DNA of 48,852 nucleotides from a virus: positions 1 to 48,852 of IMG/VR virus record IMGVR_UViG_3300010399_000003. One strand, 5' to 3'. This document shows, in pieces, positions 3,640-48,852 of this stretch. The translations under genes were made by a program, and so were the position numbers. A model generated the notes under the pieces. The model searched no databases. It had not been told where the DNA came from and was given only the letters and a program-made list of their open reading frames with translations. How positions within the stretch are numbered: position 1 is the first letter of the stretch; every line of letters starts with the position of its first letter.

Positions 3640-3651
3640 AAAGGATTTCCA

Positions 3652-15644: not shown

Positions 15645-16212
15645 AATGCTCAAAGCTGGGATGGAGCTCATGGCTCGGTGGTGTGCCCTGAATGGCGTCG
15701 CTCAGCCACGAGTGGAAATCTACGAGGGTCGGGAAACGGATTTCGGAGTCTGCGCTTACTATCGCGACGACGTGATTCACATCTGGCCCGACGCCTGTGC
15801 CCACGTGGGTTATGGTGGTCGGGCCTGGTCTTATCCTGGTTACGTCGTCGACCGAACGCCCTACGGCGTTATCCAGCACGAACTTGGTCATCACGTCGAC
15901 GACGCGGCTGGTTCACGTGGTGGTCGGGTGGCTCATCGATGGCGTGCGGCGACGAAAGAAGAACCGCTGACCGGCTATTGTCCAAACAATAATGAGTGGT
16001 TCGCCGAGATGTTTCGGCTCTTCGTCACAAATCCGGAACTGCTCAGTCTGGTTCGGCCGCGCACTCATCATCTCATGCAGATGGAGTGGCCGCACCCGGT
16101 TGAAACCCGTCGATGGCAGGACGTGCTGAATCACACCGAGCGGCAAGTGAACGCCGCGTGGAACAAGATTTCCAATGTTCAACGAAAGGAAGTGCAAGAT
16201 GGACTCTTCTAA
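15625..16212 (+). CDS. putative zinc metallopeptidase-like protein (HExxH)
   Basis: GTG start after GGAGG. The only recognisable signature is VIQHELGHHVDD. Confidence 0.5.
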   Translation: MKFTRPEMLKAGMELMARWCALNGVAQPRVEIYEGRETDFGVCAYYRDDVIHIWPDACAHVGYGGRAWSYPGYVVDRTPYGVIQHELGHHVDDAAGSRGGRVAHRWRAATKEEPLTGYCPNNNEWFAEMFRLFVTNPELLSLVRPRTHHLMQMEWPHPVETRRWQDVLNHTERQVNAAWNKISNVQRKEVQDGLF

Positions 16213-16408
16213 GTTCATTCATGACTTGATGAAGTTACCAACGCTGCCTGAGGCCGAGCGGAATGCGCGGCTCGGTCCGTGCCCGTGGTGCCCGAATTTC
16301 GACAAGAACGACCCGGCGAATAAGAACAAGTCGCACACGATGTGCATCGTCTGCGAGCATACCCTGAACAAGCAGCTCGCTGAAAAGGAGCACGGCAATG
16401 GCCGCTAG
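16175..16408 (+). CDS. hypothetical Cys-containing small protein
   Basis: CPWCP...CIVCEH. ATG 16175 sits in a 15-nt string ATTTCCAATGTTCAA identical to the start region of gene 22284. The alternative start 16199 has a better SD (AAGGAAG). Confidence 0.5.
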   Translation: MFNERKCKMDSSKFIHDLMKLPTLPEAERNARLGPCPWCPNFDKNDPANKNKSHTMCIVCEHTLNKQLAEKEHGNGR

Positions 16409-17342
16409 CCTCTTGGACAATCTCGAACCGACAATCACGCCAACGGAGCCGATGCTGGCTGCGCCAGAAAGCCAGCTGTGCGTGGAGGACTGGACGGCGT
16501 GGGCAATTGAACGGAAGTACGATGGTCATCGGATGATCATCTATCGGATCGGGAAATCCGAGCTCCACGTCTTTGCGCGACCGACTGGCGACGGTCGCAT
16601 GATTGAACGGACGAGCAAGCTCCCGGCGGAATTGATTCAGGAGCTGAAGAAGTTGCCGCCGTCGGTGACGGATGGCGAACTGCTTGGTGGCGATACGGGC
16701 ACCGACGTCACGCGGAAGGACCTCGCACACAACCTGTCGATGGTGATCTTCGACTTGCTGGAGGTCGATGGCATCGATTGGAAGAACGAACAATATGATT
16801 TCCGCCGGCAAGGATTGGTCGAGATCTTCAATCGGCTCAAGTTGAACCCGTCACGAGTGCAGCTGGCGGAATCACACTTGCTGCGGAGCGAAGGTGACGC
16901 GTTGAAATTTGTTCAGCGTGTCTTCAAAGAAAACGGCGAGGGAGCCATTCTGAAATTCCGGCGCGGTCGCTACCTGCCTGGCAAGCGGAAGAAAGAACTG
17001 TGGGTCAAGATCAAGCGCAAGGAAAGCGCGGCGCTGCCGATTGTCGGTTTCGAACCATCACGTGGCGAGGTGCGGTTTCCTGGTCACCCGTTTGCAATCG
17101 TCAGGTTGATGGATGACGACGGCAACGAAACTACGTGTAAGACGAAGACCGATGAGGAATTGGCGAAATTCGTCGCGCTCTGGCAGAAGAAATTTCCAAC
17201 GGTGCCGCTGAATCAGGTGACGGTGGAGATGGCGAAAAAACACCCAGCGGTCGGACGGTTGTTGCGCATTGAGTTTCCACGTCGCACTCGAACTGGTGGC
17301 TATCAGGGTCCGGTCATCTGGGATCGATGGGAAGACGAGTAG
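16398..17342 (+). CDS. ATP-dependent DNA ligase
   Basis: Adenylation motif I ERKYDGHRM (KxDG), then DGELL, VIFDLLEVDG, GEGAILKF, WVKIKR in the canonical motif I-V order. Confidence 0.85.
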   Translation: MAASLLDNLEPTITPTEPMLAAPESQLCVEDWTAWAIERKYDGHRMIIYRIGKSELHVFARPTGDGRMIERTSKLPAELIQELKKLPPSVTDGELLGGDTGTDVTRKDLAHNLSMVIFDLLEVDGIDWKNEQYDFRRQGLVEIFNRLKLNPSRVQLAESHLLRSEGDALKFVQRVFKENGEGAILKFRRGRYLPGKRKKELWVKIKRKESAALPIVGFEPSRGEVRFPGHPFAIVRLMDDDGNETTCKTKTDEELAKFVALWQKKFPTVPLNQVTVEMAKKHPAVGRLLRIEFPRRTRTGGYQGPVIWDRWEDE

Positions 17343-17416
17343 GATCTAGAAACCGTGGCCGACGATTTCCAAAGTTAGGTCGCGGTCGCCGGAATGAACC
17401 GGCCTGAGGAGGGTCC
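17342..17416 (+). ncRNA. type II hammerhead-like ribozyme motif, copy 3
   Basis: Stem II GGATCT (17342-47, starting inside the TAG stop) pairs with GGGTCC (17411-16). A, then GAAA (17349-52). Stem III ACCGTGGCC/GGTCGCGGT (17352-60 / 17378-86, two G.U) with GATTTCCAAA in the loop. H17 = C17387 (GUC). Stem I GCCGG-AATGAA-CCGGC (17388-403). Core CTGAGGA (17404-10). Confidence 0.75.
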
Positions 17417-17417
17417 G

Positions 17418-17879
17418 TTGGCGAAGGATGATTTCGTGACTCGTGGGTTGAAGTCGATGGCGAAACGCGAATCGGCGAAGAAGAAAGGAGCGACTCGGCG
17501 GCGGCGTGACTGGTCGGCGACTGACGCGATGGTGGCAGCGCGAAAGCCTCTGATCAAATCAGGAACTGTGTTTTCTGAATCGGAGCAGGAGGCGATTCGA
17601 AGTGCGGCGCGACGTGTGTGGGATGAATGTGGGTATGACTGTTTGCTCGCGACGGCCGACGAAGAAGGTAAGCCGGTCGAGCGTGTATCAATCAGTCGGG
17701 ATCAAGTCATCGAGATTGCACTCGATGCGGGACGAGCCGAACACTTCTTGCAGCGGGACCTGAAGAAAGGTTCGTCCGTGGTCACGGCGGAATTCATGAA
17801 GCGGTATCAGGCTGCGAAATATGACGAACTCATCGCAGTCGTGAAGCCGGCATTTCCATTCGAACGATACGGGTTGTAA
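17418..17879 (+). CDS. hypothetical protein
   Basis: TTG 17418 sits where the other ribozyme-linked genes start. The track start ATG 17394 lies inside the stem I loop, in frame, and cannot be excluded. Confidence 0.5.
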   Translation: MAKDDFVTRGLKSMAKRESAKKKGATRRRRDWSATDAMVAARKPLIKSGTVFSESEQEAIRSAARRVWDECGYDCLLATADEEGKPVERVSISRDQVIEIALDAGRAEHFLQRDLKKGSSVVTAEFMKRYQAAKYDELIAVVKPAFPFERYGL

Positions 17880-17891
17880 AGGAGCGTGCTC

Positions 17892-18236
17892 ATGTCCGGA
17901 GAGATGAAGAATGAATTGGTCAAGTTCGTGTGTGGCGTTGAAGATCACGTCCTGCACGTCTCCATCTATCGCGGGAAGAAGGACATCCACACGATGTGCA
18001 AGTGGAAGACCCCGGATGGGAAGACCAAGACCGGGTGCCGGGCATATTTCGAGCTCCACGAGGTGGACGAAGCACAGAAAGCGTTCAAGAAGCTGCTGAA
18101 GGAGGCGGAAGAGCAGGGTTGGAAGGTGCTGGAGAAGACGCAGCGGTCGACCGGCTTCAACTCGATCCCGGCTGCACCGAAACCGGCATCGTCCAGGGTG
18201 AGCCAGCTGGCCACTCCAGCGTCGGGCAAGAAGTAG
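17892..18236 (+). CDS. hypothetical protein
   Basis: ATG 17892 lies 7 nt after AAAGGAG. Confidence 0.55.
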   Translation: MSGEMKNELVKFVCGVEDHVLHVSIYRGKKDIHTMCKWKTPDGKTKTGCRAYFELHEVDEAQKAFKKLLKEAEEQGWKVLEKTQRSTGFNSIPAAPKPASSRVSQLATPASGKK

Positions 18237-18317
18237 GATCTAGAAACGCGGGAGGGCGGACAAATAGGGTCCGCCCTCCGGAGTCGTCGCCGGAATGAAC
18301 CGGCCTGAAGAGGATCC
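18236..18317 (+). ncRNA. type II hammerhead-like ribozyme motif, copy 4
   Basis: Stem II GGATCT (18236-41, overlapping the TAG) pairs with GGATCC (18312-17). A, then GAAA (18243-46). Stem III is ACG/CGT (18246-48 / 18285-87) plus an 11-bp distal helix GGAGGGCGGAC/GTCCGCCCTCC (18251-61 / 18269-79). H17 = C18288 (GUC). Stem I GCCGG-AATGAA-CCGGC (18289-304). Core CTGAAGA (18305-11). Confidence 0.75.
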
Positions 18318-18319
18318 GT

Positions 18320-18784
18320 ATGTCACGAAAGTTGCCGGAACGTTTTCTCAAGTCTGATGGCGAGTCGTTCTGCTCGGTCTGCGACAAGGTCCGAGCGCTC
18401 TGCCGGATGTGCGATCGGTGTCGCGAGCACTGTGAGTGCCCTGAATCATGCGAAGTCTGCGGTGGTCTGACCGGTCCGTTGGCCAGTGCAGTCGCCGACG
18501 TCCAAAAGTTAGAAGTCTGCGGCTGCGTCGATTGCATCATCTGTGGTGAGAAGACTCATCGGGATTACGCGGATTACGGATACGGCCTGACGGAAGAAGA
18601 GGCGTTCGAGAACTCGGGAACGACTGCCACGGCAGTCTGCGAAAAGTGCGTGGCGAAAGGCAAGACTCCGCCGCCGGCAAGTCAGCGTGGGTTTGGCACG
18701 GTAGAACCGCATCGGTGCCCGGAATGCGGTGGTGCGCTCGGTGATTGGGGTTGCGTGACAGTCGGTTGTAACGGAGGACGATGA
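18320..18784 (+). CDS. cysteine-rich multi-zinc-finger-like protein
   Basis: About 25 Cys in 154 aa, arranged as CxxC pairs (CSVC, CRMCDRC, CEVC, CIIC, CEKC, CPEC). Starts just after ribozyme copy 4. Confidence 0.6.
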   Translation: MSRKLPERFLKSDGESFCSVCDKVRALCRMCDRCREHCECPESCEVCGGLTGPLASAVADVQKLEVCGCVDCIICGEKTHRDYADYGYGLTEEEAFENSGTTATAVCEKCVAKGKTPPPASQRGFGTVEPHRCPECGGALGDWGCVTVGCNGGR

Positions 18785-19068
18785 TGGAAATGTTCAAGCT
18801 GCGTATCACGAATGTCGATATGGATGGCTACTGCGGCCGAACACACCACCCGGCGAAAAGCGACGAGGGCCTCGTGGTCGTTCCGTTGGGCATGGACGGG
18901 TGCTGGGCCGGTGAGTCATCCTACAATCCGTTGCTTGACGGTGGTCAAGCGGCGAGCGTCAAGCAGGGTTTGGATCAGGAATGGCATGAAATCTGCTGGA
19001 CCTGTCTGACCGAAGACGGCCGCACGCTCGAGCTCATGAACCATGAAGTGGAGCTCGTCCATGGCTGA
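18781..19068 (+). CDS. hypothetical protein
   Basis: ATGA overlap. Confidence 0.5.
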   Translation: MMEMFKLRITNVDMDGYCGRTHHPAKSDEGLVVVPLGMDGCWAGESSYNPLLDGGQAASVKQGLDQEWHEICWTCLTEDGRTLELMNHEVELVHG

Positions 19069-19318
19069 AGAACGTCGCACACCGCAAACAATCGAATTGG
19101 ATTGTCCTCCTGGCGATCCGCGGCCCGGTGATCTCATTGAACAAGTCATTGAGGGCACCGGTCTGCCGCTGCGCGACGCGGTCAGCCGGTTCTTCGGCAA
19201 CTGGACGTGGAATTACGAAGATGTTTCCCACGAGAAGTGGATGGAAATCCGTCCGATCTTAAAGCAGCGCATTACCGCGCTCTACGAGTCTGGCAAAATT
19301 CGATACGGGAGTTGGTGA
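19061..19318 (+). CDS. hypothetical protein
   Basis: Internal ATG overlapping the upstream stop by 8 nt. Confidence 0.5.
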   Translation: MAEERRTPQTIELDCPPGDPRPGDLIEQVIEGTGLPLRDAVSRFFGNWTWNYEDVSHEKWMEIRPILKQRITALYESGKIRYGSW

Positions 19319-36582: not shown

Positions 36583-37020
36583 TTAGCGGACCAGTGAGCT
36601 ACCAGCATTTATGGCCGTCTTTTTCGGCCGATCCAAACGATTGAAGAACTTTTCCACTTCACGCATGAGGAACGAAAGATAGTAGGTGTAGACTTCCTCG
36701 CTGTCAGGCGCGAAGCGCACGCCGCGGTCATTCAAGATATGGATGACTGCATGCAAGCACTCGTGTCCAACGGTTTGCGATTCCGCACGTGTGGAGGGAA
36801 ACCACAGAAACCACTCACGCACGCCATCGCAGCCATCATTGATGAGCTCAATCATTTTACCGAGTGGTTCCGGGCCATCGACGGCCGTCGTATTGTCCTT
36901 GTAGTGACACCGATACCACTCGGCAAATTCGAGATACGGACCAACGCACATGTGAATCGTTGCGCGGAACACTGGATCGCGGACTGTAAAGGTCCGCAGC
37001 ACCCGGCGCGATTGAGTCAC
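36583..37020 (-). CDS. hypothetical protein with HExxH motif
   Basis: VGHECLHAVIH. ATGA-type 4-nt overlap with the upstream gene. Confidence 0.5.
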   Translation of the reverse strand: MTQSRRVLRTFTVRDPVFRATIHMCVGPYLEFAEWYRCHYKDNTTAVDGPEPLGKMIELINDGCDGVREWFLWFPSTRAESQTVGHECLHAVIHILNDRGVRFAPDSEEVYTYYLSFLMREVEKFFNRLDRPKKTAINAGSSLVR

Positions 37021-38594
37021 AGCGTACCAAAAATCGCCTTCAATGCCTGCACATCGGCTCCCGGCAATTTTCCATCCGTAGTCTTGACCTGCGCGATTGC
37101 CGAATCAGGAATCACTCCGTGATCAGAGTCAAAGCTGGCGTCCCAATTCGCTGGCGGCAACCGCAGATTATCAACAGGCAAAACTCCCTGTGCACGGGCT
37201 CCTTGCCGCCACGCGTTTCCACTGATTTGAGTTCCAGTCCAATCTTTCTCGATTGCCGGGAAGCCGATGCCGTTCGACTGTGAAAAGTAGCCATAGCTGC
37301 TTTCCGCCATGACGGAATTCGTCAGGACAAATTTGCCCGGCGCTTTGGTGATGCCTGAATCGAACCACGTATTCATCCACGAATGCTGATTCGTATGCAT
37401 CGTGATGTGATCCATTACGAAAAATTCTTCGCATCCGTTGGCGAACGGTGCACCGCGGCCAGTGCCCAGCCACGGCGTAAGGTTGATCGTATGAGCAAGC
37501 ACGTTGCGGATGGTCACACGACGCATCCAATCGCTGATACGTCCGCTATCGTTCTTTCCGATGAACCCGAATACGCTGCCGACGTTGCGAATCAGCAGGT
37601 TTGTCATTGTCATATCTTCGCAGGTCGCCCAAGTTTCGATGTTCTCGCCGTTGCAGGCTTTCAACATGATCGCCACACCAGTCGGCCAATCGCGTGACCA
37701 GTTGTTTTCGAACAGGCAACTGTCAACAAGCATTCGCTTGACATGCTTGATTTCGAAGAGCGTTTTGATCGACGCGGTCTTCCAGGCATCATTGAACTGC
37801 TTTTTCAAGTGGCAGTATTTCATCACGATGTCCTGACAGGCCATTTCTGGAGAAGCACTGTCACTTCCGCCGAACATCACGTTCTCCGCGCCGCCTTCGA
37901 AGTAGTTATCATCCAGCACAATGTTCTGGCCACCGTTCCACGCGCTGACTGCCTGTGAGTCTCTCCCTGGTTCGAAGATGTCCTTGAAGTAAGACTTCTT
38001 CACCGTGACATTGGACGCATTGAGAGCGATTCCACGGTGAGCTCCAGCTGTAGGATCGCCAAAGACAAAGACTCGATCAAACATGAATCCGTCTGGACGA
38101 TCTGCAGGTGTTGGCATGCTATTCTTGTCACCACCCATCTCAATAGTCGTAAATGATTTGGTGACTGGTGGCCCGAAGGCCACATTGACGAACGCGGTAT
38201 TCCGCGATTTGTTTAGGATACGAACCGGGCTCTTTGCCGCGGTGACTCCGAAAATCTGGCCCATCGCAGGGAGATATTCTGGACCTGTCCGTTTACCATC
38301 GGCTGGTAAGTTCGTGCTGTCAGAAGAAAATGTGATCAGCTTCGCATCAGTCGGTCTTTCCGCAAGTTTCAGCTCGCCATTGTGGATACCAGGCGCAAGC
38401 AAGATTGTGCCGCCAGTCGGCAGAAGTGTATCATACGCTTTCTGCACACTGTCGCCAACATTAACCTTGATCACGTCCTTGGCTGGCTCCGGTTTCGGAA
38501 CCAGCAGCACGCTATCCAATTCTTTTTCGATGCTATCCGCCGATGCACGAATGGATTGCAGCATCGAGTCTATCCGCTCTCGTTCACCAGCCAT
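37017..38594 (-). CDS. right-handed beta-helix (pectate-lyase-fold) tail spike/depolymerase-like protein
   Basis: N-terminal coiled coil, then GGTILLAPGIHNGELKL. Repeated short Asn/Gly/Val-rich strands (NVxF, NVTV, NIVLDDNYFEGGAENVMFGG) are typical of parallel beta-helices. ATG 38594 lies 1 nt after the upstream stop (internal Met of the track ORF). Confidence 0.55.
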   Translation of the reverse strand: MAGERERIDSMLQSIRASADSIEKELDSVLLVPKPEPAKDVIKVNVGDSVQKAYDTLLPTGGTILLAPGIHNGELKLAERPTDAKLITFSSDSTNLPADGKRTGPEYLPAMGQIFGVTAAKSPVRILNKSRNTAFVNVAFGPPVTKSFTTIEMGGDKNSMPTPADRPDGFMFDRVFVFGDPTAGAHRGIALNASNVTVKKSYFKDIFEPGRDSQAVSAWNGGQNIVLDDNYFEGGAENVMFGGSDSASPEMACQDIVMKYCHLKKQFNDAWKTASIKTLFEIKHVKRMLVDSCLFENNWSRDWPTGVAIMLKACNGENIETWATCEDMTMTNLLIRNVGSVFGFIGKNDSGRISDWMRRVTIRNVLAHTINLTPWLGTGRGAPFANGCEEFFVMDHITMHTNQHSWMNTWFDSGITKAPGKFVLTNSVMAESSYGYFSQSNGIGFPAIEKDWTGTQISGNAWRQGARAQGVLPVDNLRLPPANWDASFDSDHGVIPDSAIAQVKTTDGKLPGADVQALKAIFGTL

Positions 38595-38595
38595 A

Positions 38596-39087
38596 TCATG
38601 CTCCCCTGATGGTTCGCCACGCCTGATTGAAATTGTTGGGCCACGCGTCCGGCCGAGGCTTACCAGGACGCCAACGAGCACGATAAATCATCCATCCTTT
38701 GTTGTACTCAGTCGATGTCGGCATTGAACGCGGATCAATCCACAGCAACAACCGTGCAAAAACAGTCGCAAGTACATCATTATCGACGATAGCATCGTAC
38801 ACCGAAGAAGGTGCAGGTGCGTAAAGTAGCAGCTTACAAATCGCGCCAGCGATTTCCATCGTGAGAGGATTGTTCAGGACTTCGGTGACGCCACCGGCTC
38901 GTTCAAATTGATACAGACCGTGCGCTGGACCATTCGGCACCTGTATTCGGTGTTCCAACCCTGATTCCTGCAAGGCGATAGCCAACAATTGCGCTGTCGC
39001 TTCCTGGCTGTTCATACGGCCGGGAAGCAGTGCATAAGCAGCAGGAATCGTATGCGTGTACGTGTGCCAGATAAAGTCTTCAGTCAT
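38596..39087 (-). CDS. lytic transglycosylase (SLT)-like lysozyme
   Basis: LAIALQESGLEHR...GPAHGLYQFE fits the SLT catalytic E-S...GLxQ pattern. Confidence 0.55.
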   Translation of the reverse strand: MTEDFIWHTYTHTIPAAYALLPGRMNSQEATAQLLAIALQESGLEHRIQVPNGPAHGLYQFERAGGVTEVLNNPLTMEIAGAICKLLLYAPAPSSVYDAIVDNDVLATVFARLLLWIDPRSMPTSTEYNKGWMIYRARWRPGKPRPDAWPNNFNQAWRTIRGA

Positions 39088-39458: not shown

Positions 39459-40769
39459 TTAGGAAACCCACTCATAACCAGTGATCCAAACATAGCCGGT
39501 GCCAGCACCAACACGGAAATACATCGCCTGCATCTCAGTGTGAAATTCCGACGAAAAGCCAACAACCATGCTATTCGCTGCGGCTGGTTGTTGCATAATA
39601 ACATTATTGCGGAGCGTTGTTGAACGCATGTCATAGGCATCTGGAACCGGACCAATGCAAACACTTGCACCGTTCGTTGTATTTTGACCAGCAGCCCACA
39701 CTTTAGTTGGTCCATACGGAATTACCGTTGCCAGATCCGTGAGTACTTCAATAGTTGACGTTGAACCATTCACGATGAGATGATCATTTAATAATTGAGC
39801 GCGTCGGTCAGTTTGAATGAACGCGTCGAAGTTGCTCGAACCATCATTGTAAACATAGCCAACCTTTGTATTCTTTGTATAACCAGTTGGCATCGTCGGC
39901 ACACTATCGTTAAGGCGAGTGTGTGTTTTGAATGTATAATCGGCAGTTGCACTTGAAGTCCAAGTCGTTCCATCGTAGCCATAGAACTGACCATTTGCGT
40001 AAACACTACCTCCTGCGGAATAGTGCCACGAAACATAGTTGACAGCACTCGTGGTATAATCACCTTGTAGAACAATGTAATATGTCGTGCCGGAGGTCAG
40101 AGTTGCAGGTGATCGGAAGATGAATTGTACCCACTGACTAGACGTGCTGAATGCATTAGCGTCGAGTTTGTCCGACGTCGCGAGTGGCGTTCCGGATGGA
40201 CTGCCACTGGAATCTGCTTCAATAGTCAACCATACACGACCTGCTGGATTACCAGCACGAAACATCAGAATATCAACTGCGTCCAGAGGACCAGTCGTGC
40301 CTGGCTTAAAGCTCTGACCTTCCTTGACGTTGGTTGTGGCACCAAATCGGAGTGGGCTATTTGTTGTCTGTGCCGTTTGCGATTGATCAACAGGTGCGGA
40401 TTTCGCCTTGTGTAAAAGCAAACCCTTAGTGCCATCATCTTTAGCAATGGCGTGCACTTCGTATCGAGTTGACGCAGCCTCGCTACCAGTGTCAAGGCCG
40501 TTTGCGCCAGAAACAGTAATATCAGCGGTCTGACCATCCCAATTACTCAGACGAGTTCCATCACTCATCACGATTTCATCCGCCTTTAACCAGACTCGAC
40601 TTGCAGCCAAGTTAAAGTCAGGATGTGTCCGCAAGCGTAGACCACGAAAAGTTTGTAACAGATGGTGTTCAGATCGAAGTGAGTTAAGATTATCACGAAT
40701 ATGGGTATTCAGCATCGAGGCTGTCACCATTTCGCCAGCGTTCCACGTACGAGGATTTGTCCAAGCCAT
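39459..40769 (-). CDS. tail fibre protein
   Basis: The N-terminus MAWTNPRTWNAGEMVTASMLNTHIRDNLNSL resembles conserved phage fibre N-termini. The remainder is Gly/Thr/Ser/Asn-rich. TAATG coupling to the upstream gene. Confidence 0.5.
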   Translation of the reverse strand: MAWTNPRTWNAGEMVTASMLNTHIRDNLNSLRSEHHLLQTFRGLRLRTHPDFNLAASRVWLKADEIVMSDGTRLSNWDGQTADITVSGANGLDTGSEAASTRYEVHAIAKDDGTKGLLLHKAKSAPVDQSQTAQTTNSPLRFGATTNVKEGQSFKPGTTGPLDAVDILMFRAGNPAGRVWLTIEADSSGSPSGTPLATSDKLDANAFSTSSQWVQFIFRSPATLTSGTTYYIVLQGDYTTSAVNYVSWHYSAGGSVYANGQFYGYDGTTWTSSATADYTFKTHTRLNDSVPTMPTGYTKNTKVGYVYNDGSSNFDAFIQTDRRAQLLNDHLIVNGSTSTIEVLTDLATVIPYGPTKVWAAGQNTTNGASVCIGPVPDAYDMRSTTLRNNVIMQQPAAANSMVVGFSSEFHTEMQAMYFRVGAGTGYVWITGYEWVS

Positions 40770-41923
40770 TATCTTGCCCTCTCTCCGAGGTCAACGCGTG
40801 CAAACATCGGATCATCGTAGGAGTAAACAAGCACCTGCCGTGCGTTGGCTCGTGCCCAGATTTCTAGATCCGGCATCTCTTCAAAACGACGTTGTGATAC
40901 AATGAAAGTATCACAATTCGTAACTTGTTCACGAATCATTGGATCTGCAAGATTGCCACACACAAGAAATCCGCGGCCACGGACTTTATCGTAATCCATT
41001 TCAATGCCCATGATCGGCATTTGAAAATCATCGCGAATCCGTTCAAGCAATTTTCCATTACCAGCGCCAAGATCAACGACCAAACCTGCAGGTGGTTGCA
41101 CATTGAGTTCCGCCAAAATCATGGCATGAGCTCGTTCCATGTTGGCTTCGGAATTGAATCCGTTTTCGGTCCAATCTTTCGATCGCATGAGTTTGAGTGG
41201 TTTTGTTGGTTGTTGCTGATATGGAAAGACAAGACCGCGTGCACCTTCGTCTGGATACGAAGTGCCAATTCGACGCACCACACGATTTCCTAATACAGTC
41301 GTTCGCGTCGAGACTTTCAAAATCGGATACTTGATTTCAGCGAGACCGTTCTTTGCGGACCACTCGATTGGCCAACTTAGAATATCGCGTGCCCATCCAA
41401 GTTCTTTCCGTGGCCACAAGGCATCCAAACTTTGAGCGAACAACCATGTATCATCACAGGTGAACGAGCATGGTAGATGCGGCACTAATCGAACACCAAG
41501 CCAACGACCAAGAATATTGCACTCGAGTGGACCGGAGACATGTAACGGATCTGGACCAGCCATATCCCACGTCGTATCGACATTTCCATTGACTTTCACT
41601 CGCTGAAAAAACTGCCGACAACATCGCGGATAGCGCAGCAATCGACCAACCGCGTCATCATCTCGTTTCCGATAGGCTCTCGCAAGTTCCTCAGCCAACG
41701 GTCCGACTGCAAAACGATCCTGATCCACAATCAGTGCCGGTGACAAGCCAGATTTCTGCACGAGCTTTTCACCGTAGACTAATGCCACAGATCGCAGTCC
41801 GAGTCGCACGGATGCCAATTCCACTTCCAGCCACGCGTTCGATACAGCCTGCAAACGTGGTCCCCAAATTTCACGCGCCTTGCTATTCGCCCACATGATT
41901 CGCGTCGAATCAGAAGGAGGCAT
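40769..41923 (-). CDS. two-domain protein: Cys-containing N-terminal domain plus C-terminal class I SAM methyltransferase domain
   Basis: Motif I LVVDLGAGNGKLLE, followed by GIEMD and CGNLAD. N-terminal YPRCCRQFF...HLPCSFTCD. Start at the Met preceded by GGAGA (41923), overlapping the radical SAM stop by 14 nt. Confidence 0.6.
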   Translation of the reverse strand: MPPSDSTRIMWANSKAREIWGPRLQAVSNAWLEVELASVRLGLRSVALVYGEKLVQKSGLSPALIVDQDRFAVGPLAEELARAYRKRDDDAVGRLLRYPRCCRQFFQRVKVNGNVDTTWDMAGPDPLHVSGPLECNILGRWLGVRLVPHLPCSFTCDDTWLFAQSLDALWPRKELGWARDILSWPIEWSAKNGLAEIKYPILKVSTRTTVLGNRVVRRIGTSYPDEGARGLVFPYQQQPTKPLKLMRSKDWTENGFNSEANMERAHAMILAELNVQPPAGLVVDLGAGNGKLLERIRDDFQMPIMGIEMDYDKVRGRGFLVCGNLADPMIREQVTNCDTFIVSQRRFEEMPDLEIWARANARQVLVYSYDDPMFARVDLGERAR

Positions 41924-43214
41924 CCGAATCTCCATGCATCACAGTCGTACCAGAGTCGCCATGAACAACATACGGATTATCTGCGTGTTGATATCCGTCA
42001 GGTGCATCCCAATGATCACCATGAGGATGATCCTGTAAAATCTCTGGTTCCTTACCCGATAACACGGATTGCAGAGCTTCGTGAATGGAAATGTTCTTGC
42101 CGGATTCCCAGAAGCGCAACATAACTGCGTCCACACGCTGCCGTAATTCTGGTTGTTTCGAAAGCGGCACGCGACCTTCTTGAATCAGATCAGCTTCCAT
42201 CCGTTCGAACAGCGCCATCCAACTCGCGCAATGTTCACTGCGATTCCGCCAATCACCGTCCTGTGCGGTGCCAGGACACTGACCTTTGCACGCAAAGAAA
42301 AACCTACATCCCTGACAACCAAGTTCCTCTTGAGGTGTATGGTAGAGTGCGACTTGCCGATCGTGGCTCACGACATCGGCCTTCCGCCAATCCACACCTT
42401 CTTTGTTCATACGACCGCAATTCGAGGATTCACCCTGACCATTCACGCCGCGCACCGCGGCAGTCGTGTAAGGATCACAAGCATTCCAGATACATGTCAC
42501 CTGTTGATCTTCAGCCATGAGCAATTTGCGCATGTCATTGAAGATATCAAAATCAATTCCGGGATGCATTTTCTGAAAATGATACAACGATAACAAGGCA
42601 GCCGTGTTTTCTTCATTCGTTAATGCCATCGTCGAACGCACACGATCATTCTCAACTTCGAGCAGATGGATTCGCATACTGCGAATTCCGAGCTTGTTCA
42701 GGGTGGTGAACCACTGCATGAGTCGCCAAAGTCGTTCGCCAACAGCATTTCCTCGATAGAGCGTCGTGATGATACTTGGTACGATCTTCACTTTGAGCAA
42801 TTTATGTAATGCAACGAAGCTCGCATGCGTTGCTGCACGAGTCTTTTCCAAGGTGCCAGCCCAACGACTGTCGTTTAGTTCGTCTGGACCATCTAGTGAC
42901 AAACCGACATGCACTTTGTATCGCTGAAATAGTACAATGTGTTCGTCGGTAATCAGCGTGCCATTGGATTGGATGCTGTTTGAACCAAATCGCTCAAGCC
43001 CGTAGGCAAAGATCTCTTCAAGAATCGGTAATGGTGTAAGGAGTGCTTCGCCGCCGAAAATGGAAAATTGACCACCCTCGCGTTCAAGACCTGCTTTCAT
43101 CTTTTCGAAATTGTAACCTTGTGTGATATTGCCAGCTTCACGCATTTGATTCTGATAGCAATAATCACATGATAGATTACATGCCACGCCAACAGGCGTC
43201 AATTCAATAGACAT
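41910..43214 (-). CDS. radical SAM enzyme with SPASM-type C-terminal domain (anSME/peptide-maturase-like)
   Basis: CNLSCDYC (CX3CX2C), IFGGEALL, then the auxiliary-cluster pattern CIWNAC...NCG...CQGCRFFFACKGQC (CX2CX5CX3C). 1-nt TGATG overlap with the upstream tail gene. Confidence 0.85.
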   Translation of the reverse strand: MSIELTPVGVACNLSCDYCYQNQMREAGNITQGYNFEKMKAGLEREGGQFSIFGGEALLTPLPILEEIFAYGLERFGSNSIQSNGTLITDEHIVLFQRYKVHVGLSLDGPDELNDSRWAGTLEKTRAATHASFVALHKLLKVKIVPSIITTLYRGNAVGERLWRLMQWFTTLNKLGIRSMRIHLLEVENDRVRSTMALTNEENTAALLSLYHFQKMHPGIDFDIFNDMRKLLMAEDQQVTCIWNACDPYTTAAVRGVNGQGESSNCGRMNKEGVDWRKADVVSHDRQVALYHTPQEELGCQGCRFFFACKGQCPGTAQDGDWRNRSEHCASWMALFERMEADLIQEGRVPLSKQPELRQRVDAVMLRFWESGKNISIHEALQSVLSGKEPEILQDHPHGDHWDAPDGYQHADNPYVVHGDSGTTVMHGDSDASF

Positions 43215-45418
43215 CAGTTTAAATCCCCATGAGCAATATCACTGTGTTGATCACCATGTGGCGTATCGGTATGCAACACATCCGTGTGAGCAACGTCGCC
43301 GTGCGCAGTATCAGCATGTGCTGAATCGGAATGTGCTGTATCTGAGTGAACACCGTCTGCATGAGCCGCAATATCAGAATGTGCTGTATCAGAATGTGCT
43401 GTATCGCCGTGACTAACGTCAGCGTGCGCCACGTCAGAATGTGTGTTGACTAAGGCGACATCCGAATGCGCAGTATCCGAATGTGAATCTACGTGTGCCG
43501 AGTCACTATGTGAATCACTGTGCGAATCGGTATGCGAATCACCATGCGCAATGTGACCAGGTGAATCGAAAAATTCTTCACGATCAACGTGCGAATCAGA
43601 GTGAGAATCTTCGTGTGCGATATCAGAGTGAGCTACGTCGGAGTGGGAATCAGAGTGAGCTACGTCGGAGTGCGCCGTATCACCATGCGTATCACTATGT
43701 GCAGTATCAGTATGCGCGCGGTCTGAATGAGCAGCGTCGCCATGAGCAACGTCTGAATGAGCGACGTCACCGTGCGTTCCAGCATCTGCATGTGCAGCAT
43801 CACCATGGGCAACGTCCTGATGTGCATCATCAGTATGCGTATCGGAATGAGCTATGTCTCCGTGTGCAGTATCCTGATGCACGTCAGAATGAGCCACATC
43901 TGTATGACCAACGATCAAACCAAATCCAAGTCGCGTTGATCCATCAAGTTCGGAAAGTCCCTCGATTTCCAATAACCAAAATGCCGTTGAATCAGCAGGG
44001 ACAAGTGTAAATTCGGTTCGGAGTGTATTATCTTGTTCCGTCTCAGTGATTGAATTAATGTAGAATGAACGCGTGATACCAGTCACGTAATCCGTCAGAC
44101 CAATACGATCACTGATGTCACGATCAAGGCTTCTTGCTAATTCTAATGCATCGCTATTCAAGCCAACAAAACGAACGAGACCCGAAACTTGTGTTATCGG
44201 AAAGGCCATAGAAAAAACGAAATATTGCGCAGCTTCCAATCCAAATCGTGGATCAGCTTGATACACCATATCAATCTGTTGCACGATTGGACCATACTGT
44301 GCAATACTCGTATCGTCTTTCCACTGCATGACAGTCGCACCATAATCATACAATGGTTTCCCGCGTTGTTGTAGTTTCGTCAAATAGCCAGTCACACCTC
44401 CGTTGTACGTCACAGAAAATTCTGTCGCGTTTCCAGAAAAACCAATCGTCACCGACACAAAACCTGTCAGATTCGTTCCGCTTCCATCACTCGCCGTATT
44501 TGCTGTGTAATCGGTAGTCGCTGTGATTGGTGCTAAATCAGCAGCGCCAACACGAACGTCTGGATTATCTGGATCTGTCCAAGGCCCAAGAATTGTAATA
44601 GTCTGGCCAGGGATTAGCTCCATTGGTTGTTTCATCGAGAACATGACAACGTAGCTGGAGCCAGGCACCCGAGGATGAACAGTTGATTGAACCTTGTTGA
44701 TCAGACTAGTACGATCTCGATCGGCGACAAACCCAAAATGATCATCATACACATCAGCATTAGTTGCACTGATTGCACGACGGGTTCTGGATTCATACAC
44801 AACAGTTCCGTCACCACGTATCCAGCAACGATCTAAACCACTAATGCATAGACGATAAATTTCATCGCGAAGCACTGTCTGTTCATCTCGTGTACGATCC
44901 AGTGAATACGGAAAAATATCAGCACTCAAATCCATTTCCAATGCGTCAGGCTGGCTGACGATCGGAATTGAATCAATGAGGACCTGGAAAATCTCGTCAC
45001 CTCGTTTGTTGATTTGTACTGGAAGATTTTCTAATCTCGTTCGCTGTGCAACATCCATCCAATCGACAACTTCACACGATACCGTACGAGGACCGTGCCG
45101 ACCAGTGATTGGAGTGATTGAATCTAACACGCCAGTAAATCGGATGATACTGCCGATTCGATAGCGCACACGGATATTCAATTCAAATCCAGATCTCCTA
45201 TTTTCATGATCTGGACTGTAATATCCGATTAATCCAACACTGTTTCGTTCGCTATTGTCGAGTGAAAAGGACAGAGTGCCGATATCGGCTACAAGATCAA
45301 GAATGGAAGAACCAGGGAGACCACGATGCCACGTGATGCCAGGACCACGAAGCACATCGGTAACGGTCGTCCAACCATTACCACGGCCGCTGAATTCCAT
45401 TTCAATGATGCCACTCAT
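43214..45418 (-). CDS. tail (distal tail/tip) protein with C-terminal His-x-Asp repeat domain
   Basis: Follows the tape measure gene with a 4-nt overlap. The N-terminal ~500 aa is beta-rich, the position typical of Dit/tail-tip proteins. The C-terminal 231 aa is almost entirely (A)H-x-D-x repeats. Confidence 0.6.
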   Translation of the reverse strand: MSGIIEMEFSGRGNGWTTVTDVLRGPGITWHRGLPGSSILDLVADIGTLSFSLDNSERNSVGLIGYYSPDHENRRSGFELNIRVRYRIGSIIRFTGVLDSITPITGRHGPRTVSCEVVDWMDVAQRTRLENLPVQINKRGDEIFQVLIDSIPIVSQPDALEMDLSADIFPYSLDRTRDEQTVLRDEIYRLCISGLDRCWIRGDGTVVYESRTRRAISATNADVYDDHFGFVADRDRTSLINKVQSTVHPRVPGSSYVVMFSMKQPMELIPGQTITILGPWTDPDNPDVRVGAADLAPITATTDYTANTASDGSGTNLTGFVSVTIGFSGNATEFSVTYNGGVTGYLTKLQQRGKPLYDYGATVMQWKDDTSIAQYGPIVQQIDMVYQADPRFGLEAAQYFVFSMAFPITQVSGLVRFVGLNSDALELARSLDRDISDRIGLTDYVTGITRSFYINSITETEQDNTLRTEFTLVPADSTAFWLLEIEGLSELDGSTRLGFGLIVGHTDVAHSDVHQDTAHGDIAHSDTHTDDAHQDVAHGDAAHADAGTHGDVAHSDVAHGDAAHSDRAHTDTAHSDTHGDTAHSDVAHSDSHSDVAHSDIAHEDSHSDSHVDREEFFDSPGHIAHGDSHTDSHSDSHSDSAHVDSHSDTAHSDVALVNTHSDVAHADVSHGDTAHSDTAHSDIAAHADGVHSDTAHSDSAHADTAHGDVAHTDVLHTDTPHGDQHSDIAHGDLN
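43217..43909 (-). repeat. coding tandem repeats (12-15 nt periodicity) encoding the HxD repeat domain
   Basis: Protein residues 504-734 begin GHTDVAHSDVHQDTAHGDIAHSDTHTDDAHQDVAHGD and end HGDQHSDIAHGDLN. About 45 H-x-D triplets by hand count, interrupted once by REEFFDSPGHIA. Confidence 0.9.
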
Positions 45419-48400
45419 GCCGTCCGCAATCCGACTAAGCCAGTAGCGATCGCACGAGACATAGCACGCGGCAGCGATGTTTTCAAATCTGAGCGAAGAC
45501 CGTTGATAGAATCGACGACTTCCTCATTCGACGGCATCTCCGGGAAACCACCCTGATTCAGTTGACGCAAACCTTCATTGCCGAGTCGTTCCATGCCTTT
45601 CGTTGTAACAATGCCCTCGCCAGGTGTAAGCATCGTCGCCACTGTATCCGAACCTCTCGCAGGCCACGGACCTTCGAGCACCGGTCCGCCAACGGCCAAG
45701 TATTGCACACCGGATGCCGTGACGCGACCGCCACGCGATGCGTAATCAGGGATGTCCGGCGCAATGTAATGACCTTCAATCTGGATATCGAAATCCTTGG
45801 GGATTTTATCCAGTTCCGTCTTCATATTCGCGGCAGTCGTTTTAGTCTGTTGCTCCATTGCACGAAGACCTTCAGGGATCTTCGCACCGAGCGCGTCACC
45901 GATTGCCATCAGCACGTCAAGGATCTTTTGATTATCCGATTTCGCCTGTTCACCGATGAGCCCGGATTGCACGCCTTGATCAATCAATGCTTGCGTCGAT
46001 TCATCGACGCTGTAGCCGTAGCGCTGCTGCATCTCCCAGATTGTTTGGAGATCACCACGCATCGCAAGCATCACAGTGTCACTGGAATAACCCTGTGCCA
46101 CCAACGCTTCTTCAGTCGCGGCAATCTGACCGGCCAGACCTGAGAATGTCTCCTGATTCAGGATACCAGCGTTGCTCAGACCGATCATACCAGCGGTGTA
46201 GCCTTCAATGGATTCGAGTGCCGGACCCGCGATTTCATCATTCGCGAAATCAACCATGTTCTTGATGAAATCGAATGCAGCACCTCCAGTGTAACCAGTC
46301 GCTTCCAACTGCGCCTGCAACAATTCGACGTTTGGACCAATCGCCCTGACCGACTCGATAAATGATTTGCCAGCCTCCATGTTCGCCGAGACAATACCAG
46401 CCAACGAACTAGCAACTGCACTCGCGGCTTCTTGTGAATGAAGTCCGGTCACTTCGATAATTCGATCATTGTTCTCGATCTGATCATGCAACGCCATCAA
46501 GCCCTTGTATTCAGCTTCGTTCTTCGCAATGATCTGATCAATCTGGATTTGAATTGCCATTTTATGCCCAAGATCCGCCTTGGCATACTTGGCTTCGAGA
46601 TCCATGATTTTCGCGATGTCTAGGTATTCATCCTGATCCATTTCCGCGCGGCGCTTGGAGAATTCCGCTTGTTGTTTCGCCCGATCTGCGTATGCATTAC
46701 CGGTGATTCTCAATGCCGCACTGAAACCAGTCTGCGCATTAGTTAGCTGACCGGATACATATGCGGCGATCTCTTTCGATTGAGTTCCGTATTGTCCGTT
46801 CAGCTTGATGATTTCAACAAGCTGTTTATCCAACATCCCAAGATTGTTGGTACCAGCTTGTGCAAATTGCGCAAAGTTTTCATCCATGACTTTCGCACCT
46901 TGTGCGATCGTCATTTGATGTGTTTCAATCAGTGAGAACACATCGTGGAATCTATCCGTCATTTGTGCTAGATTATCTTTTGAGAGACCTCCGGCTTCCT
47001 TGATGATATCAGATAAATGCGATATTGCCGCGGCCTGCCGACTTCCTCCGAAATCTTCCTTTGCAGATTTTGCAATCGCCTTCGCAAGATCGTCTGAAAT
47101 CTTCTCACCAAAATCCCGCCCGACTTCTTCCGCAGCCTTGGCCCACGCAGGTTTTCCACGAATGATGCCAACCACCAAACCAGCCGCTGCGCCGACAGCC
47201 ATTCCATAAGGCCCGAACATCGAACCAGCCTGAGCCCCAGCCATCATACCACCAAGTGCGTTACCGGCGGCAGATGAATGTGCGGAAGTCGCGTCCCAAA
47301 CCGCAATTGCACCTTGAGCGATACCAGCTGCGGTTTGTACACCAGCAGCGAACTTCTGCATCCTGTCGGCATTATCATTGAAAATCGTGCTCAGCGGTCC
47401 GAAGTGACCACCAAGTTCATGACCATCAATACCAAGTTGTTTTGATTGCTTATGCGCACTTTCAAGTCCGACAACAACTTGTCCAACTCCGCTGAGTATC
47501 GCACCCATCATCCCGCCGGTCACTTGACCAAGTTTGGTGAAATACTCGGAGATCGTCGCAAGTGACTCAGATGCCCGTCTTTCTGCAGCTGCCAATTTAT
47601 CGAGTTTGATTCTCAGTTCGTCGATTTCTGTAGACTTACGACCGACATCTTCCAAACTTAGCGCCATGTTATAGAAGCCTTGTAATGGCGCAGGAATACT
47701 CCGTTCAACCATTTTAAGTCCAGCAGCAACTTCCACCTGCGTCCGAACCCATTTCAATTCAGTCTCGTCGACTTCTAAGAGTTTTGAATGGAATCCCTTC
47801 AATTCACCGAATTGAATCTTAACGAGCTGCGCACCAATTTTCTTTTGCTCAGCCCATTGTTTTTCTGCATATACAACGCTTTCAACAATGGGTTTTGTTA
47901 CGCTGTATGCCGCGGCGATTTCAGCAATTGATTTACCACGTGCATGATCAAAGGCGATTCCTTCATATAACGTCGCGCCAATTTTGGCCATGACGTTTTG
48001 ATAATCGCCAAGTTTTGCATTGTAATTCGTCAAAGCCGCTTCGATTTTTGTCTGTTCGGCTGCGGATTTCTTGAGTTCCGTGATGTAGGCTTTCGTTGCC
48101 GCTTCTGTCGCACCAGTGACTTTGAGGATTTCCTTTATCGACTCGGTGTTCATAGCCACGCGAGTATATTCTTTTTGTGCTTCAGTCAGCGGCGTTAACG
48201 CAGCATCTTTCAAAGATTTCAATTTCTGTGACATCAAATCGGCACCAGCCGCACTGTTCGCCATGGATGCTGCAACAGCTTGTAGTGCAGGATGCCCAGC
48301 CAGAGCCTCTTTATTTACTCCGGCGATAGCAACTCCAACCTGTTTCATTAATGGCGTCGAAAAATTATTCGCTTTTGCCGTCGCCATCACTGAACGTTCA

Positions 48401-48852
48401 AGTTCGTCGAGTTGCGTCGCCGTGTGTCCAGAATTACTTGATAGATCTGAAATCGCTTCTTGTAAATCTTTCGCCCCACCGTGCGCTTTACGAAACTGTT
48501 CGTTATTGAAAGCAATTGCTTCGGCGTAGCGTTTGGCTTGATCTGTTTCGGTTGACGACCAACCATCTTTCAGAGCTTTATTCAATACGAATTGTTTGGC
48601 TGCAGCTGTTTCTGTTTGTAATTGTGCTTCTGCAGTCGCCTGCCGCCAACTTGTATAAGCCAAAGTCACGCCAGCAATCGCAGCCGCGATTGCCACAAAT
48701 GGATGTGCCAAAATGATATTGTAGAGTTTGGTAAAAGCTGCACCGAGATTCGCCAAAGCTGCTTCACCGAGTGTTCCCCATCCAAACGCTTGGGTCATGA
48801 CACTCAGTTTGAAAATTTCAGCGGCAAGACTCGCTATCCAACCACCAAGTTT
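45415..48852 (-). CDS. tail tape measure protein (5' end possibly outside window)
   Basis: More than 1100 aa, Ala/Gln/Lys-rich and helical, with hydrophobic N-terminal and Gly-rich central segments. C-terminal GSDTVATMLTPGEGIVTTKGMERLG block. The frame upstream of ATG 48798 has no stop up to the window edge. Confidence 0.8.
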   Translation of the reverse strand, partial: KLGGWIASLAAEIFKLSVMTQAFGWGTLGEAALANLGAAFTKLYNIILAHPFVAIAAAIAGVTLAYTSWRQATAEAQLQTETAAAKQFVLNKALKDGWSSTETDQAKRYAEAIAFNNEQFRKAHGGAKDLQEAISDLSSNSGHTATQLDELERSVMATAKANNFSTPLMKQVGVAIAGVNKEALAGHPALQAVAASMANSAAGADLMSQKLKSLKDAALTPLTEAQKEYTRVAMNTESIKEILKVTGATEAATKAYITELKKSAAEQTKIEAALTNYNAKLGDYQNVMAKIGATLYEGIAFDHARGKSIAEIAAAYSVTKPIVESVVYAEKQWAEQKKIGAQLVKIQFGELKGFHSKLLEVDETELKWVRTQVEVAAGLKMVERSIPAPLQGFYNMALSLEDVGRKSTEIDELRIKLDKLAAAERRASESLATISEYFTKLGQVTGGMMGAILSGVGQVVVGLESAHKQSKQLGIDGHELGGHFGPLSTIFNDNADRMQKFAAGVQTAAGIAQGAIAVWDATSAHSSAAGNALGGMMAGAQAGSMFGPYGMAVGAAAGLVVGIIRGKPAWAKAAEEVGRDFGEKISDDLAKAIAKSAKEDFGGSRQAAAISHLSDIIKEAGGLSKDNLAQMTDRFHDVFSLIETHQMTIAQGAKVMDENFAQFAQAGTNNLGMLDKQLVEIIKLNGQYGTQSKEIAAYVSGQLTNAQTGFSAALRITGNAYADRAKQQAEFSKRRAEMDQDEYLDIAKIMDLEAKYAKADLGHKMAIQIQIDQIIAKNEAEYKGLMALHDQIENNDRIIEVTGLHSQEAASAVASSLAGIVSANMEAGKSFIESVRAIGPNVELLQAQLEATGYTGGAAFDFIKNMVDFANDEIAGPALESIEGYTAGMIGLSNAGILNQETFSGLAGQIAATEEALVAQGYSSDTVMLAMRGDLQTIWEMQQRYGYSVDESTQALIDQGVQSGLIGEQAKSDNQKILDVLMAIGDALGAKIPEGLRAMEQQTKTTAANMKTELDKIPKDFDIQIEGHYIAPDIPDYASRGGRVTASGVQYLAVGGPVLEGPWPARGSDTVATMLTPGEGIVTTKGMERLGNEGLRQLNQGGFPEMPSNEEVVDSINGLRSDLKTSLPRAMSRAIATGLVGLRTA

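Follow-up and report, generated by a model that had tools for sequence, protein, structure and literature searches.

A tandem His-x-Asp array on a predicted phage baseplate hub protein and its probable modification by an adjoining radical SAM enzyme

The locus and the array

The stretch of DNA analyzed here (the window) comprises 48,852 nucleotides from a virus, namely positions 1 to 48,852 of the IMG/VR virus record IMGVR_UViG_3300010399_000003. On its minus strand, an open reading frame (ORF) at 43214..45418 encodes a 734-aa product, the C-terminus of which is built from tandem His-x-Asp (HxD) motifs. The two following genes encode a radical S-adenosylmethionine (SAM) enzyme with a SPASM domain and a DUF483 protein with an attached methyltransferase, and the array is very probably a substrate of the radical SAM enzyme. 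The features on which this reading is based are the following.

45415..48798 (-): tape-measure-like ORF with a weak phrog_167 match; its stop overlaps the start of the hub gene
43910..45418 (-): baseplate hub / Tal-like N-terminal domain, residues 1-503 (AlphaFold2 and Foldseek)
43223..43906 (-): HxD array, residues 505-732 of the hub protein (motif count, shuffles, codon and column conservation)
43547..43582 (-): non-repeat insert REEFFDSPGHIA, residues 613-624, which interrupts the array once
41910..43214 (-): radical SAM/SPASM enzyme, 434 aa (PF04055, E 2e-14)
41928..42023 (-): radical SAM enzyme, C-terminal tail, itself bearing five HxD motifs (HGDHWDAPDGYQHADNPYVVHGDSGTTVMHGD; from sequence)
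40769..41935 (-): DUF483 plus a compact class I SAM methyltransferase, 388 aa, overlapping the end of the radical SAM gene

Within residues 505-732, 45 H-x-D motifs were counted. When the C-terminal 231 residues were shuffled 2000 times, only 9.4 ± 2.5 motifs were obtained on average and 19 at most, and in the actual sequence all but one of the 46 His and all but two of the 47 Asp of this part sit inside a motif. Successive motifs are five residues apart in 29 cases, four in 11 and six in two. The REEFFDSPGHIA insert is variable or missing in aligned relatives. The protein terminates with HGDLN, followed by the stop codon at 43214-43216.

At the DNA level, Tandem Repeats Finder reported short and weak periodicities only, and a recent origin by slippage was rejected for this reason. 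The four AHSDV units are encoded by four different DNA sequences, the three AHSDT units likewise all differ, and the His codons of the array are divided between CAT (28) and CAC (18). The arrays of ten relatives could be aligned column by column, with 93% conservation for His and 92% for Asp as opposed to 28-58% for the Ala, Ser, Thr, Val and Gly columns. Some His columns are occupied by Phe in close relatives, a change that needs two nucleotide substitutions. As judged from these alignments, the array is real, old and selected for His at position i and Asp at position i+2, since the His and Asp columns are conserved while identical units differ in their codons. The first-pass annotation of this DNA had described about 45 tandem His-x-Asp repeats with a periodicity of four or five residues, split by a single non-repeat insert and old enough to be degenerate at synonymous positions, and in all of these respects it is borne out. 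Nor is the repeat missing or highly variable among close relatives, as array-bearing hub proteins with 39-65% identity hold 31-56 motifs.

AlphaFold2, run on the monomer without metals, modeled the array as coil with a predicted local distance difference test score (pLDDT) of 35-49. A plus-strand ORF of 175 aa opposite the array (43483..44010) was dismissed as a mirror artifact of the repeat codon pattern and not a gene.

The protein carrying the array

The identity of the 734-aa protein was reached by structure prediction followed by Foldseek alone. Scans against Pfam, NCBIfam, PHROGs and PADLOC gave no match, a PDB sequence search with the N-terminal domain gave none either, and tblastn with the whole protein against 50,697 phage records (INPHARED) found no relative. 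The AlphaFold2 model, calculated from an alignment of 76 homologues, reached a pLDDT above 90 over residues 1-480. Its best Foldseek match in the PDB was the MuSo2 43-kDa tail protein (3cdd, E 1.8e-12), accompanied by Mu gp44 (1wru, 9ki1_G), T4 gp27 (1k28_D), VgrG spikes and the Tal proteins of 80alpha and NF5. The Foldseek probability was 1.0 for 3cdd, 1wru, 9ki1_G, 1k28_D, 6v8i_AE and 9m7n, and the hub-fold matches had template modeling (TM) scores of 0.64-0.73 relative to the target at a sequence identity of merely 7-12%. Thus, residues 1-480 of the predicted structure display the gp27/gp44 fold that marks the baseplate hub / Tal family (Mu gp44, T4 gp27, the N-terminal part of VgrG, siphophage Tal). 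The place of the gene is also that of the family, directly after the tape measure gene: its start overlaps the stop of the tape-measure-like ORF (ATGA). With regard to both the structural matches and this position, the 734-aa protein is, on the predicted fold, the central hub / Tal of the tail tip, in agreement with the earlier designation as a tail protein. Since the fold is that of trimeric hub proteins, and the matched structures are trimers, three arrays should emerge together, next to one another, on the tail axis.

When residues 1-502 were used as a database query, 126 homologues were obtained. Approximately 45 of the 120 listed carry a C-terminal array of 21-53 motifs ending in HGDxN, and the others listed either consist of the core alone, with about 500-550 aa, or bear LamG or He_PIG domains. 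The array therefore appears to be an optional module at the site where relatives place host-interaction domains. In the known members of the hub / Tal family, the C-terminal part is a beta-helix spike, a lysin or a lectin domain, whereas here it is the HxD array.

The two enzymes encoded with the array

The hub and radical SAM genes are joined by TGATG, in which the stop of the former and the start of the latter overlap. The enzyme begins directly with the radical SAM core, where the motif CxxxCxxC occupies residues 12-19 (Cys 12, 16 and 19), and contains no N-terminal RiPP recognition element (RRE; RiPP, a peptide made by the ribosome and modified after translation) or other peptide-recognition domain. 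Eight further Cys follow at positions 241, 246, 266, 300, 303, 309, 313 and 329. All 11 radical SAM and SPASM Cys are invariant among 31 homologues, and by its sequence pattern the set amounts to a full SPASM domain with two auxiliary clusters. The top NCBIfam model was anSME (TIGR03942) with 73.7 bits against a cut-off of 349.45, followed by the dynobactin enzyme DynA with 68.2 bits; both were aligned over the full length, and DynA as well as PapB remained far below their cut-offs. Lower scores were obtained for AmcB (51.7 bits, cut-off 425), YhhB (48.4, 445), GrrM/OscB (48.2, 310), XyeB (35.8, 450) and FxsB (31, 370). The nearest PDB structure by sequence was anSME (4k36), and 2195 relatives of the enzyme were found at E ≤ 1e-20.

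The enzyme itself ends in a tail with five HxD motifs. Close relatives share the whole HGDHWDAPDGYQHADNPYVVHGDSGTTVMHGD sequence, and around two thirds of the 120 best homologues have 2-9 HxD motifs within their last 60 residues. The tail may serve as a pseudo-substrate or for docking, or it may be a segment that the enzyme modifies in itself.

The third gene is deposited in the database with a start at 41923 (P0241, 384 aa). Its DUF483 domain contains conserved Cys and His residues, namely C101 and C102 (GYPxCC), H149, C152 and C156 (VPHLPCSFxC), and H192, which look like a metal or cluster site as far as the sequence can tell; a search for solved structures matching the DUF483 domain found none. 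The gene after it overlaps its predecessor as well (TAATG). As the tape-measure-like, hub, radical SAM, DUF483 and next genes thus overlap from start to stop, both enzymes are expected to be translationally coupled to the tail operon and to be made together with the tail.

Conservation of array, radical SAM enzyme and DUF483 protein

For the neighborhood analysis, 155 loci were collected via enzyme homologues of 38-67% identity, comprising 73 viral contigs, 80 bacterial or archaeal genomes and 2 Thermus phages. The viral and genomic loci were fetched by an alignment-based scan of enzyme homologues, after a single-protein query for viral loci had given one locus. An ORF separate from the enzyme was termed dense when it contained at least six HxD motifs in 60 aa. 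Such an ORF was present in 123 of the 155 loci. In 76 cases the dense ORF ended no more than 100 nt upstream of the enzyme start on the same strand; a further 32 lay within 3 kb upstream of the enzyme and 20 just after the DUF483 gene. The strand of the enzyme held 167 dense ORFs in 1.42 million aa, compared to 5 in 1.24 million aa on the opposite strand. A DUF483 homologue was located directly downstream of the enzyme in 126 of the 155 loci. The carriers of the enzyme loci include phages and many bacterial phyla. Eight viral loci match the architecture of the window, with a hub domain of 39-58% identity and 34-56 HxD motifs that end at the ATG of the enzyme.

Presence and absence of the parts follow the same pattern. 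The array-less hub homologues L159, L161 and L162 have no radical SAM gene, DUF483 gene or HxD ORF within 10 kb. In L160, an array-less hub is followed by a separate HxD protein of 318 aa, a radical SAM gene and a DUF483-methyltransferase gene. Fusions were also found: one protein joins the enzyme to an array of 21 motifs (P0056, 561 aa), two join the enzyme to DUF483 (P0048 and P0055, 705 aa), and two distant DUF483-methyltransferase homologues, the only ones of this kind, contain a PqqD domain, which serves for peptide recognition in RiPP pathways, above the Pfam threshold (P0307 and P0329).

Among cultured phages, the Thermus phages Cumys, phiMa and phiLo encode enzyme homologues with 49-53% identity. 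In Cumys, the order is Cumys_13 (a 'hypothetical protein' of 343 aa with 54 HxD motifs), the radical SAM gene Cumys_12 and the DUF483 gene Cumys_11. In phiLo (L002, MH673673), the 'hypothetical proteins' phiLo_135-137 at 14810-19154 (-) contain 72, 101 and at least 20 HxD motifs; they lie on the strand opposite to the radical SAM and DUF483 genes of this phage, a few kb away.

Considering the conserved neighborhood, the pattern of presence and absence, and the gene fusions, we regard it as highly probable from the sequence comparison that the array is a substrate of the adjoining radical SAM enzyme. This possibility had been offered in the first-pass annotation as a secondary idea and now has strong support.

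The bacterial carriers differ widely in size. In five metagenome-assembled genomes (MAGs) of Acidobacteria (L134, L138, L139, L148 and L154), peptides of 62-75 aa are encoded singly or in pairs just upstream of the radical SAM gene. They consist nearly entirely of PHxDT-type units with no obvious leader, and their sequences resemble those of classical small precursors on which the same enzyme would act. Actinomycetota MAGs (L076, L088, L094 and L095) encode HxD proteins of 170-195 aa with a twin-arginine (Tat) signal and a lipobox (SRREILRAGMAVPAVLAVPAVAAACGG), and this combination points to lipoproteins that undergo maturation in the cytoplasm and are exported. In L084, L089, L091, L092, L110, L117, L129 and others, bacterial proteins of 900-2650 aa are encoded directly upstream of the enzyme and end in HxD arrays of longer period, for instance TPHVDTxxxPHVDT.

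Motif grammar

The grammar of the motif was derived from 3994 HxD motifs in 152 carrier proteins. Across these carriers, the spacing of the units varies from 3 to 10 residues, and 94% of the array His residues fall in an HxD. The middle position is nearly free, with Thr, Ser, Gly, Val and Ala as the commonest residues and Pro almost never found. At position 3, the main alternative to Asp is Asn (313 HxN); Glu (17) and Ser (20) are rare and His is almost never used. Where an array Asp has no His at -2, this place is enriched in Phe (6.9-fold over expectation), Tyr (7.0-fold) and Trp (4.5-fold). Nearly all other residues are depleted there, with only Asp (4.8-fold, unexplained) and a handful of Cys above expectation. 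Two homologous enzymes are even accompanied by variant arrays: a Phe-x-Asn array with 37 FxN in L027 at 2896-3942 (+), e.g., PFDNTPFDNTPFDNV, and a His-x-Asn array in L068 at 14853-15542 (+), SHSNSYGFHINNQPTHHNTNPTHSN. In view of the Phe, Tyr, Trp and Asn substitutions and of these two arrays, the conserved unit is better written as aromatic-x-Asp/Asn. Residues that never vary in the HxD-linked enzymes but differ in these two were sought as candidates for specificity; the changes obtained (N270T in L027 and several in L068, including K310G) were set aside as uninterpretable with n = 1 each.

This type of unit is used by the three-residue cyclophane synthases of the anSME subfamily, which link residue i, through an aromatic carbon, to the C-beta of residue i+2 (PMC11002830, PMC11499958). 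The characterized pairs comprise Tyr-C3/Asp (YxdB), Trp-C7/Asn or Asp (OscB) and Phe-C4/Asn, and for His the pairs His-C2/Ala (HaaB), His-C2/Arg (YhhB) and His-C2/Lys (HtkB) (PMC11002830, PMC11499958). The dynobactin enzyme is credited with both a C-C and a C-N cross-link (PMC11002830), and by analogy a C-N variant of a His-Asp link is conceivable. As the aromatic-x-Asp/Asn grammar matches that of the triceptide synthases, we propose one intramotif His-Asp crosslink per unit. This assignment draws on the motif grammar and a distant family resemblance, and we would place it just short of an even chance.

Proposed maturation of the array

Documented above are the anatomy of the array, the fold of the hub, and a genetic coupling between array, radical SAM enzyme and DUF483 protein that is conserved, and on them the following account is built. 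The array would be a string of 45 three-residue modification sites that projects from the tail tip as a central fiber. It would be modified by the radical SAM/SPASM enzyme from the overlapping gene together with the DUF483-methyltransferase. Because the enzyme has no leader-binding domain, the motif itself must be recognized, and the enzyme would read it inside the full-length protein, as anSME does. During the reaction, the 5'-deoxyadenosyl radical would take a C-beta hydrogen from the Asp at position 3. The resulting carbon radical would then add to the imidazole of the His at position 1, either at C2 or at a ring nitrogen, and an auxiliary Fe-S cluster would accept the electron, leaving one small i/i+2 macrocycle per unit. 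The predicted mass change is -2 Da per unit and up to about 90 Da in total. Subsequently, the methyltransferase domain may methylate an imidazole nitrogen or the Asp carboxylate. The product would be a rigid chain of rings, resistant to protease and heat and perhaps still able to bind metal ions, and it may serve for host-surface contact or for penetration of the envelope.

Taken as a whole, this account of a trimeric hub with 45 enzyme-modified sites, a radical SAM enzyme, a DUF483-methyltransferase and His-Asp crosslinks seems to us somewhat more plausible than not; what we infer in it is the reaction, the acceptor of the methyl groups and the function during infection. The more far-reaching statement is that the fiber consists of about 45 His-Asp macrocycles installed by the phage's own radical SAM enzyme, and that the module represents a widespread 'RiPP-protein' class in bacteria, where it acts on small all-repeat peptides, Tat-exported lipoproteins and giant surface proteins. 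This joint reading is offered tentatively, with the balance tilted slightly against it.

Several observations weigh against the proposal. For none of the named cyclophane synthase families in NCBIfam does the score of the enzyme come near the cut-off, and the known triceptide substrates are short leader-bearing peptides and not structural proteins of 734 aa. The His and Asp composition would equally fit a plain metal-binding array. In addition, about 20 bacterial loci contain the enzyme pair with no array within 10 kb, and the comparison of the L027 and L068 enzymes revealed no convincing active-site residue that co-varies with the motif type. Finally, the DUF483 proteins of the Thermus phages lack the methyltransferase domain, and thus methylation cannot be essential to the core reaction.

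Alternative readings

The alternative that survives best keeps the array as the enzyme substrate and changes the chemistry: epimerization, oxidation or decarboxylation at C-beta of Asp (with aminomalonate or a dehydro residue as possible products), C-methylation, another modification of His, or crosslinks between chains. The genetic coupling fits this equally well, and the families matched over the full length differ in their reactions, as anSME oxidizes C-beta, PapB forms a Cys-Asp thioether and DynA makes C-C and C-N links. Moreover, radical SAM cyclophane synthases give rise to aminomalonate as a shunt product (PMC12186529), and HxsA bears an unexplained +8 Da on its SHRSS motif (PMC13128918). 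However, the enrichment of aromatic residues at position 1 is required by a link from the ring to C-beta and not by chemistry confined to Asp or the backbone, and the i/i+2 spacing is invariant while all else varies. We therefore consider a different chemistry unlikely, but still worth keeping in mind beside the His-Asp crosslink.

The first-pass annotation had favored a metal-threaded needle, in which three parallel arrays surround a column of metal ions with His and Asp as ligands and no covalent modification takes place. HxH motifs bind iron in the tip of T4 gp37 and in the spike apexes of P2 gpV and phi92 gp138, and this background speaks for a similar role here. A trimeric hub fold would hold three arrays in register, His and Asp are the sole conserved residues, and the Tat signal with lipobox on some bacterial carriers is a route for proteins that are folded or loaded with cofactors in the cytoplasm. 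Hence, the trimeric tail-tip context assumed for the needle is upheld by the hub fold. As the sole explanation, however, the needle fails to account for much of the data. It leaves the joint gain and loss of arrays and the radical SAM/DUF483 pair unexplained, as well as the fusions of enzyme and array. Phe, Tyr and Trp in place of His are no metal ligands, position 3 is commonly Asn and rarely Glu or His, and a Phe-x-Asn array partners a homologous enzyme. The unit length is irregular both within and between arrays, the small, non-trimeric all-HxD peptides of 62-75 aa go with the enzyme too, and AlphaFold2 gives the array no structure, albeit in a monomer prediction with no metals. An unmodified needle is thus improbable; an array that is modified and binds metals as well is possible.

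A published reading of the enzymes points in another direction. The Cumys paper described a three-gene 'rSAM module' in phages and prophages and suggested an unknown DNA modification (PMC11437467), so that the radical SAM/DUF483 pair might act on phage DNA or nucleotides with the HxD protein as an unrelated neighbor. Homologues of the enzyme pair do occur in cyanobacterial loci with deazapurine DNA-modification genes (PMC11437467). Yet the third gene of the Cumys module is the HxD protein, and in that paper the word 'histidine' occurs zero times and the repeats are unmentioned (PMC11437467). The substrates of anSME-type SPASM enzymes are peptides and proteins, PqqD fusions and enzyme-array fusions exist, and the genes of the window sit in the tail operon, outside the replication block. 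A role in DNA modification is therefore very improbable. The idea that the array is merely an unmodified disordered acidic tail, spacer or sticky low-complexity region agrees with the low-complexity sequence and the AlphaFold2 coil of pLDDT 35-49, but carries equally little weight next to the position-specific conservation of His and Asp despite diverged DNA, the tight co-inheritance with two enzymes and the conserved HGDxN ending.

Comparison with known systems

Returning to the array as a substrate for His-Asp crosslinking, the closest known systems are the triceptides, RiPPs with three-residue cyclophanes that are produced by 3-CyFE enzymes (XncB/XyeB, OscB/GrrM, MscB/FxsB, YxdB, HaaB, YhhB and HtkB). 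Their enzymes likewise belong to the anSME-like branch of radical SAM/SPASM proteins, and the window encodes such an enzyme with CxxxCxxC and auxiliary Cys. The substrate unit is there also a tandem aromatic-x-X3, and repeated motifs of this form are present in the hub protein. All characterized aromatic-x-Asx types (Tyr-x-Asp, Trp-x-Asp/Asn and Phe-x-Asn) occur as minor units in HxD arrays (PMC11002830, PMC11499958). On the other hand, the window enzyme belongs to none of the named synthase families by their cut-offs, and neither an RRE nor a leader peptide to be read by one is present. Instead of a short leader peptide, the substrate is the leaderless C-terminus of a 734-aa virion hub with 45 units, the obligate partner is a DUF483(-methyltransferase) protein, and the crosslink is a predicted one. 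In the triceptide literature searched, no report of His-x-Asp as a triceptide motif was found.

The HXS system is similar in other respects. There, two radical SAM enzymes mature a protein that bears five His-x-Ser repeats, and in the periplasm this protein stops phage DNA from entering (PMC13128918). Both HXS (HxsA-D) and the window module combine a protein with tandem His-x-X repeats, a dedicated radical SAM maturation, a partner protein and a step at the envelope or at DNA entry. While HXS is a bacterial defense with two radical SAM enzymes, HxsD, five basic HxS repeats and a periplasmic effector, the window module has one enzyme, DUF483 in place of HxsD, and acidic HxD repeats that number up to 100 or more in such arrays, and it is phage-encoded and located on the tail. 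The window holds no HxsB/HxsC pair with HxsD but a single radical SAM gene, which scored 28.1 bits with TIGR03978 against a cut-off of 370, and a PADLOC check gave viperin-level similarity only. An HxsA-type protein was not found either, as NCBIfam gave no match and the arrays contain 20 HxS versus 3994 HxD.

The resemblance to anSME comprises the best sequence and PDB match, the absence of a leader-recognition domain, the two auxiliary clusters, and the modification of a short motif in a full-length protein through abstraction of a C-beta hydrogen. The window substrate differs in having no Cys/Ser-x-Pro/Ala-x-Arg motif. The TIGR03942 score is below the equivalog level, and there is no sulfatase in the locus. 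From the HxH motifs of fibers and spikes (T4 gp37 tip, P2 gpV and phi92 gp138 apex), which are also short His-x-X motifs in a trimeric tail-tip protein, the array is set apart by HxD in place of HxH, 45 irregular units, the Phe, Tyr, Trp and Asn substitutions and the dedicated modifying enzymes.

A literature search for HxD repeats, for DUF483, and for tail fibers combined with radical SAM enzymes found no description of the system besides the Cumys paper (PMC11437467). The HxD / radical SAM / DUF483 module is best described as widespread and uncharacterized, with a probable radical SAM-matured repeat substrate on a phage baseplate hub in the present case, and it departs from triceptides and HXS in enzyme family, partner, motif, number of units and location on the virion. 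If this is correct, the hub would be the first structural protein of a virion to be matured by RiPP-type radical chemistry. Radical SAM peptide chemistry, so far associated with small natural products and recently with one defense effector, would thereby reach a virus structural protein, and the organs by which phages recognize or penetrate their hosts could depend on covalent, enzyme-installed macrocycles. The family is large and testable: 2195 enzyme relatives, hundreds of them with adjoining arrays, share the rule aromatic-x-Asp/Asn, the substrates range from 62 aa to about 2600 aa, and the three Thermus phages Cumys, phiMa and phiLo are cultured carriers. The published 'rSAM module' of Thermus phages would be reassigned from DNA modification to protein maturation, and DUF483 would gain a functional context. 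For peptide engineering, a heat-stable fiber with rigid, genetically encoded macrocycles in tandem would also be of practical interest.

Other genes of the window

Downstream of the DUF483-methyltransferase gene, three further proteins are encoded in the tail operon.

39459-40769 (-): 436-aa protein with a choice-of-anchor R domain and a C-terminal phrog_17105 match
38596-39087 (-): 163-aa protein, phrog_3108 at E 2e-37 and a weak Phage_lysozyme2 match
37017-38681 (-): 554-aa protein with no family match

The 436-aa and 554-aa proteins are probably further host-recognition proteins, and the 163-aa protein is, by its matches, probably a tail-associated lysozyme. The tail operon is met by a converging plus-strand block in window positions 1-35500, which is devoted to replication and nucleotide metabolism and includes a thymidylate synthase (1899-2960), a DNA polymerase exonuclease subunit, two helicases and an ATP-dependent ligase. 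The same hub protein was also found on contigs of 112,759 and 112,870 bp, and the window is accordingly taken as part of a phage genome of approximately 113 kb. On longer contigs, the tape-measure-like gene is called as 1397-1503 aa.

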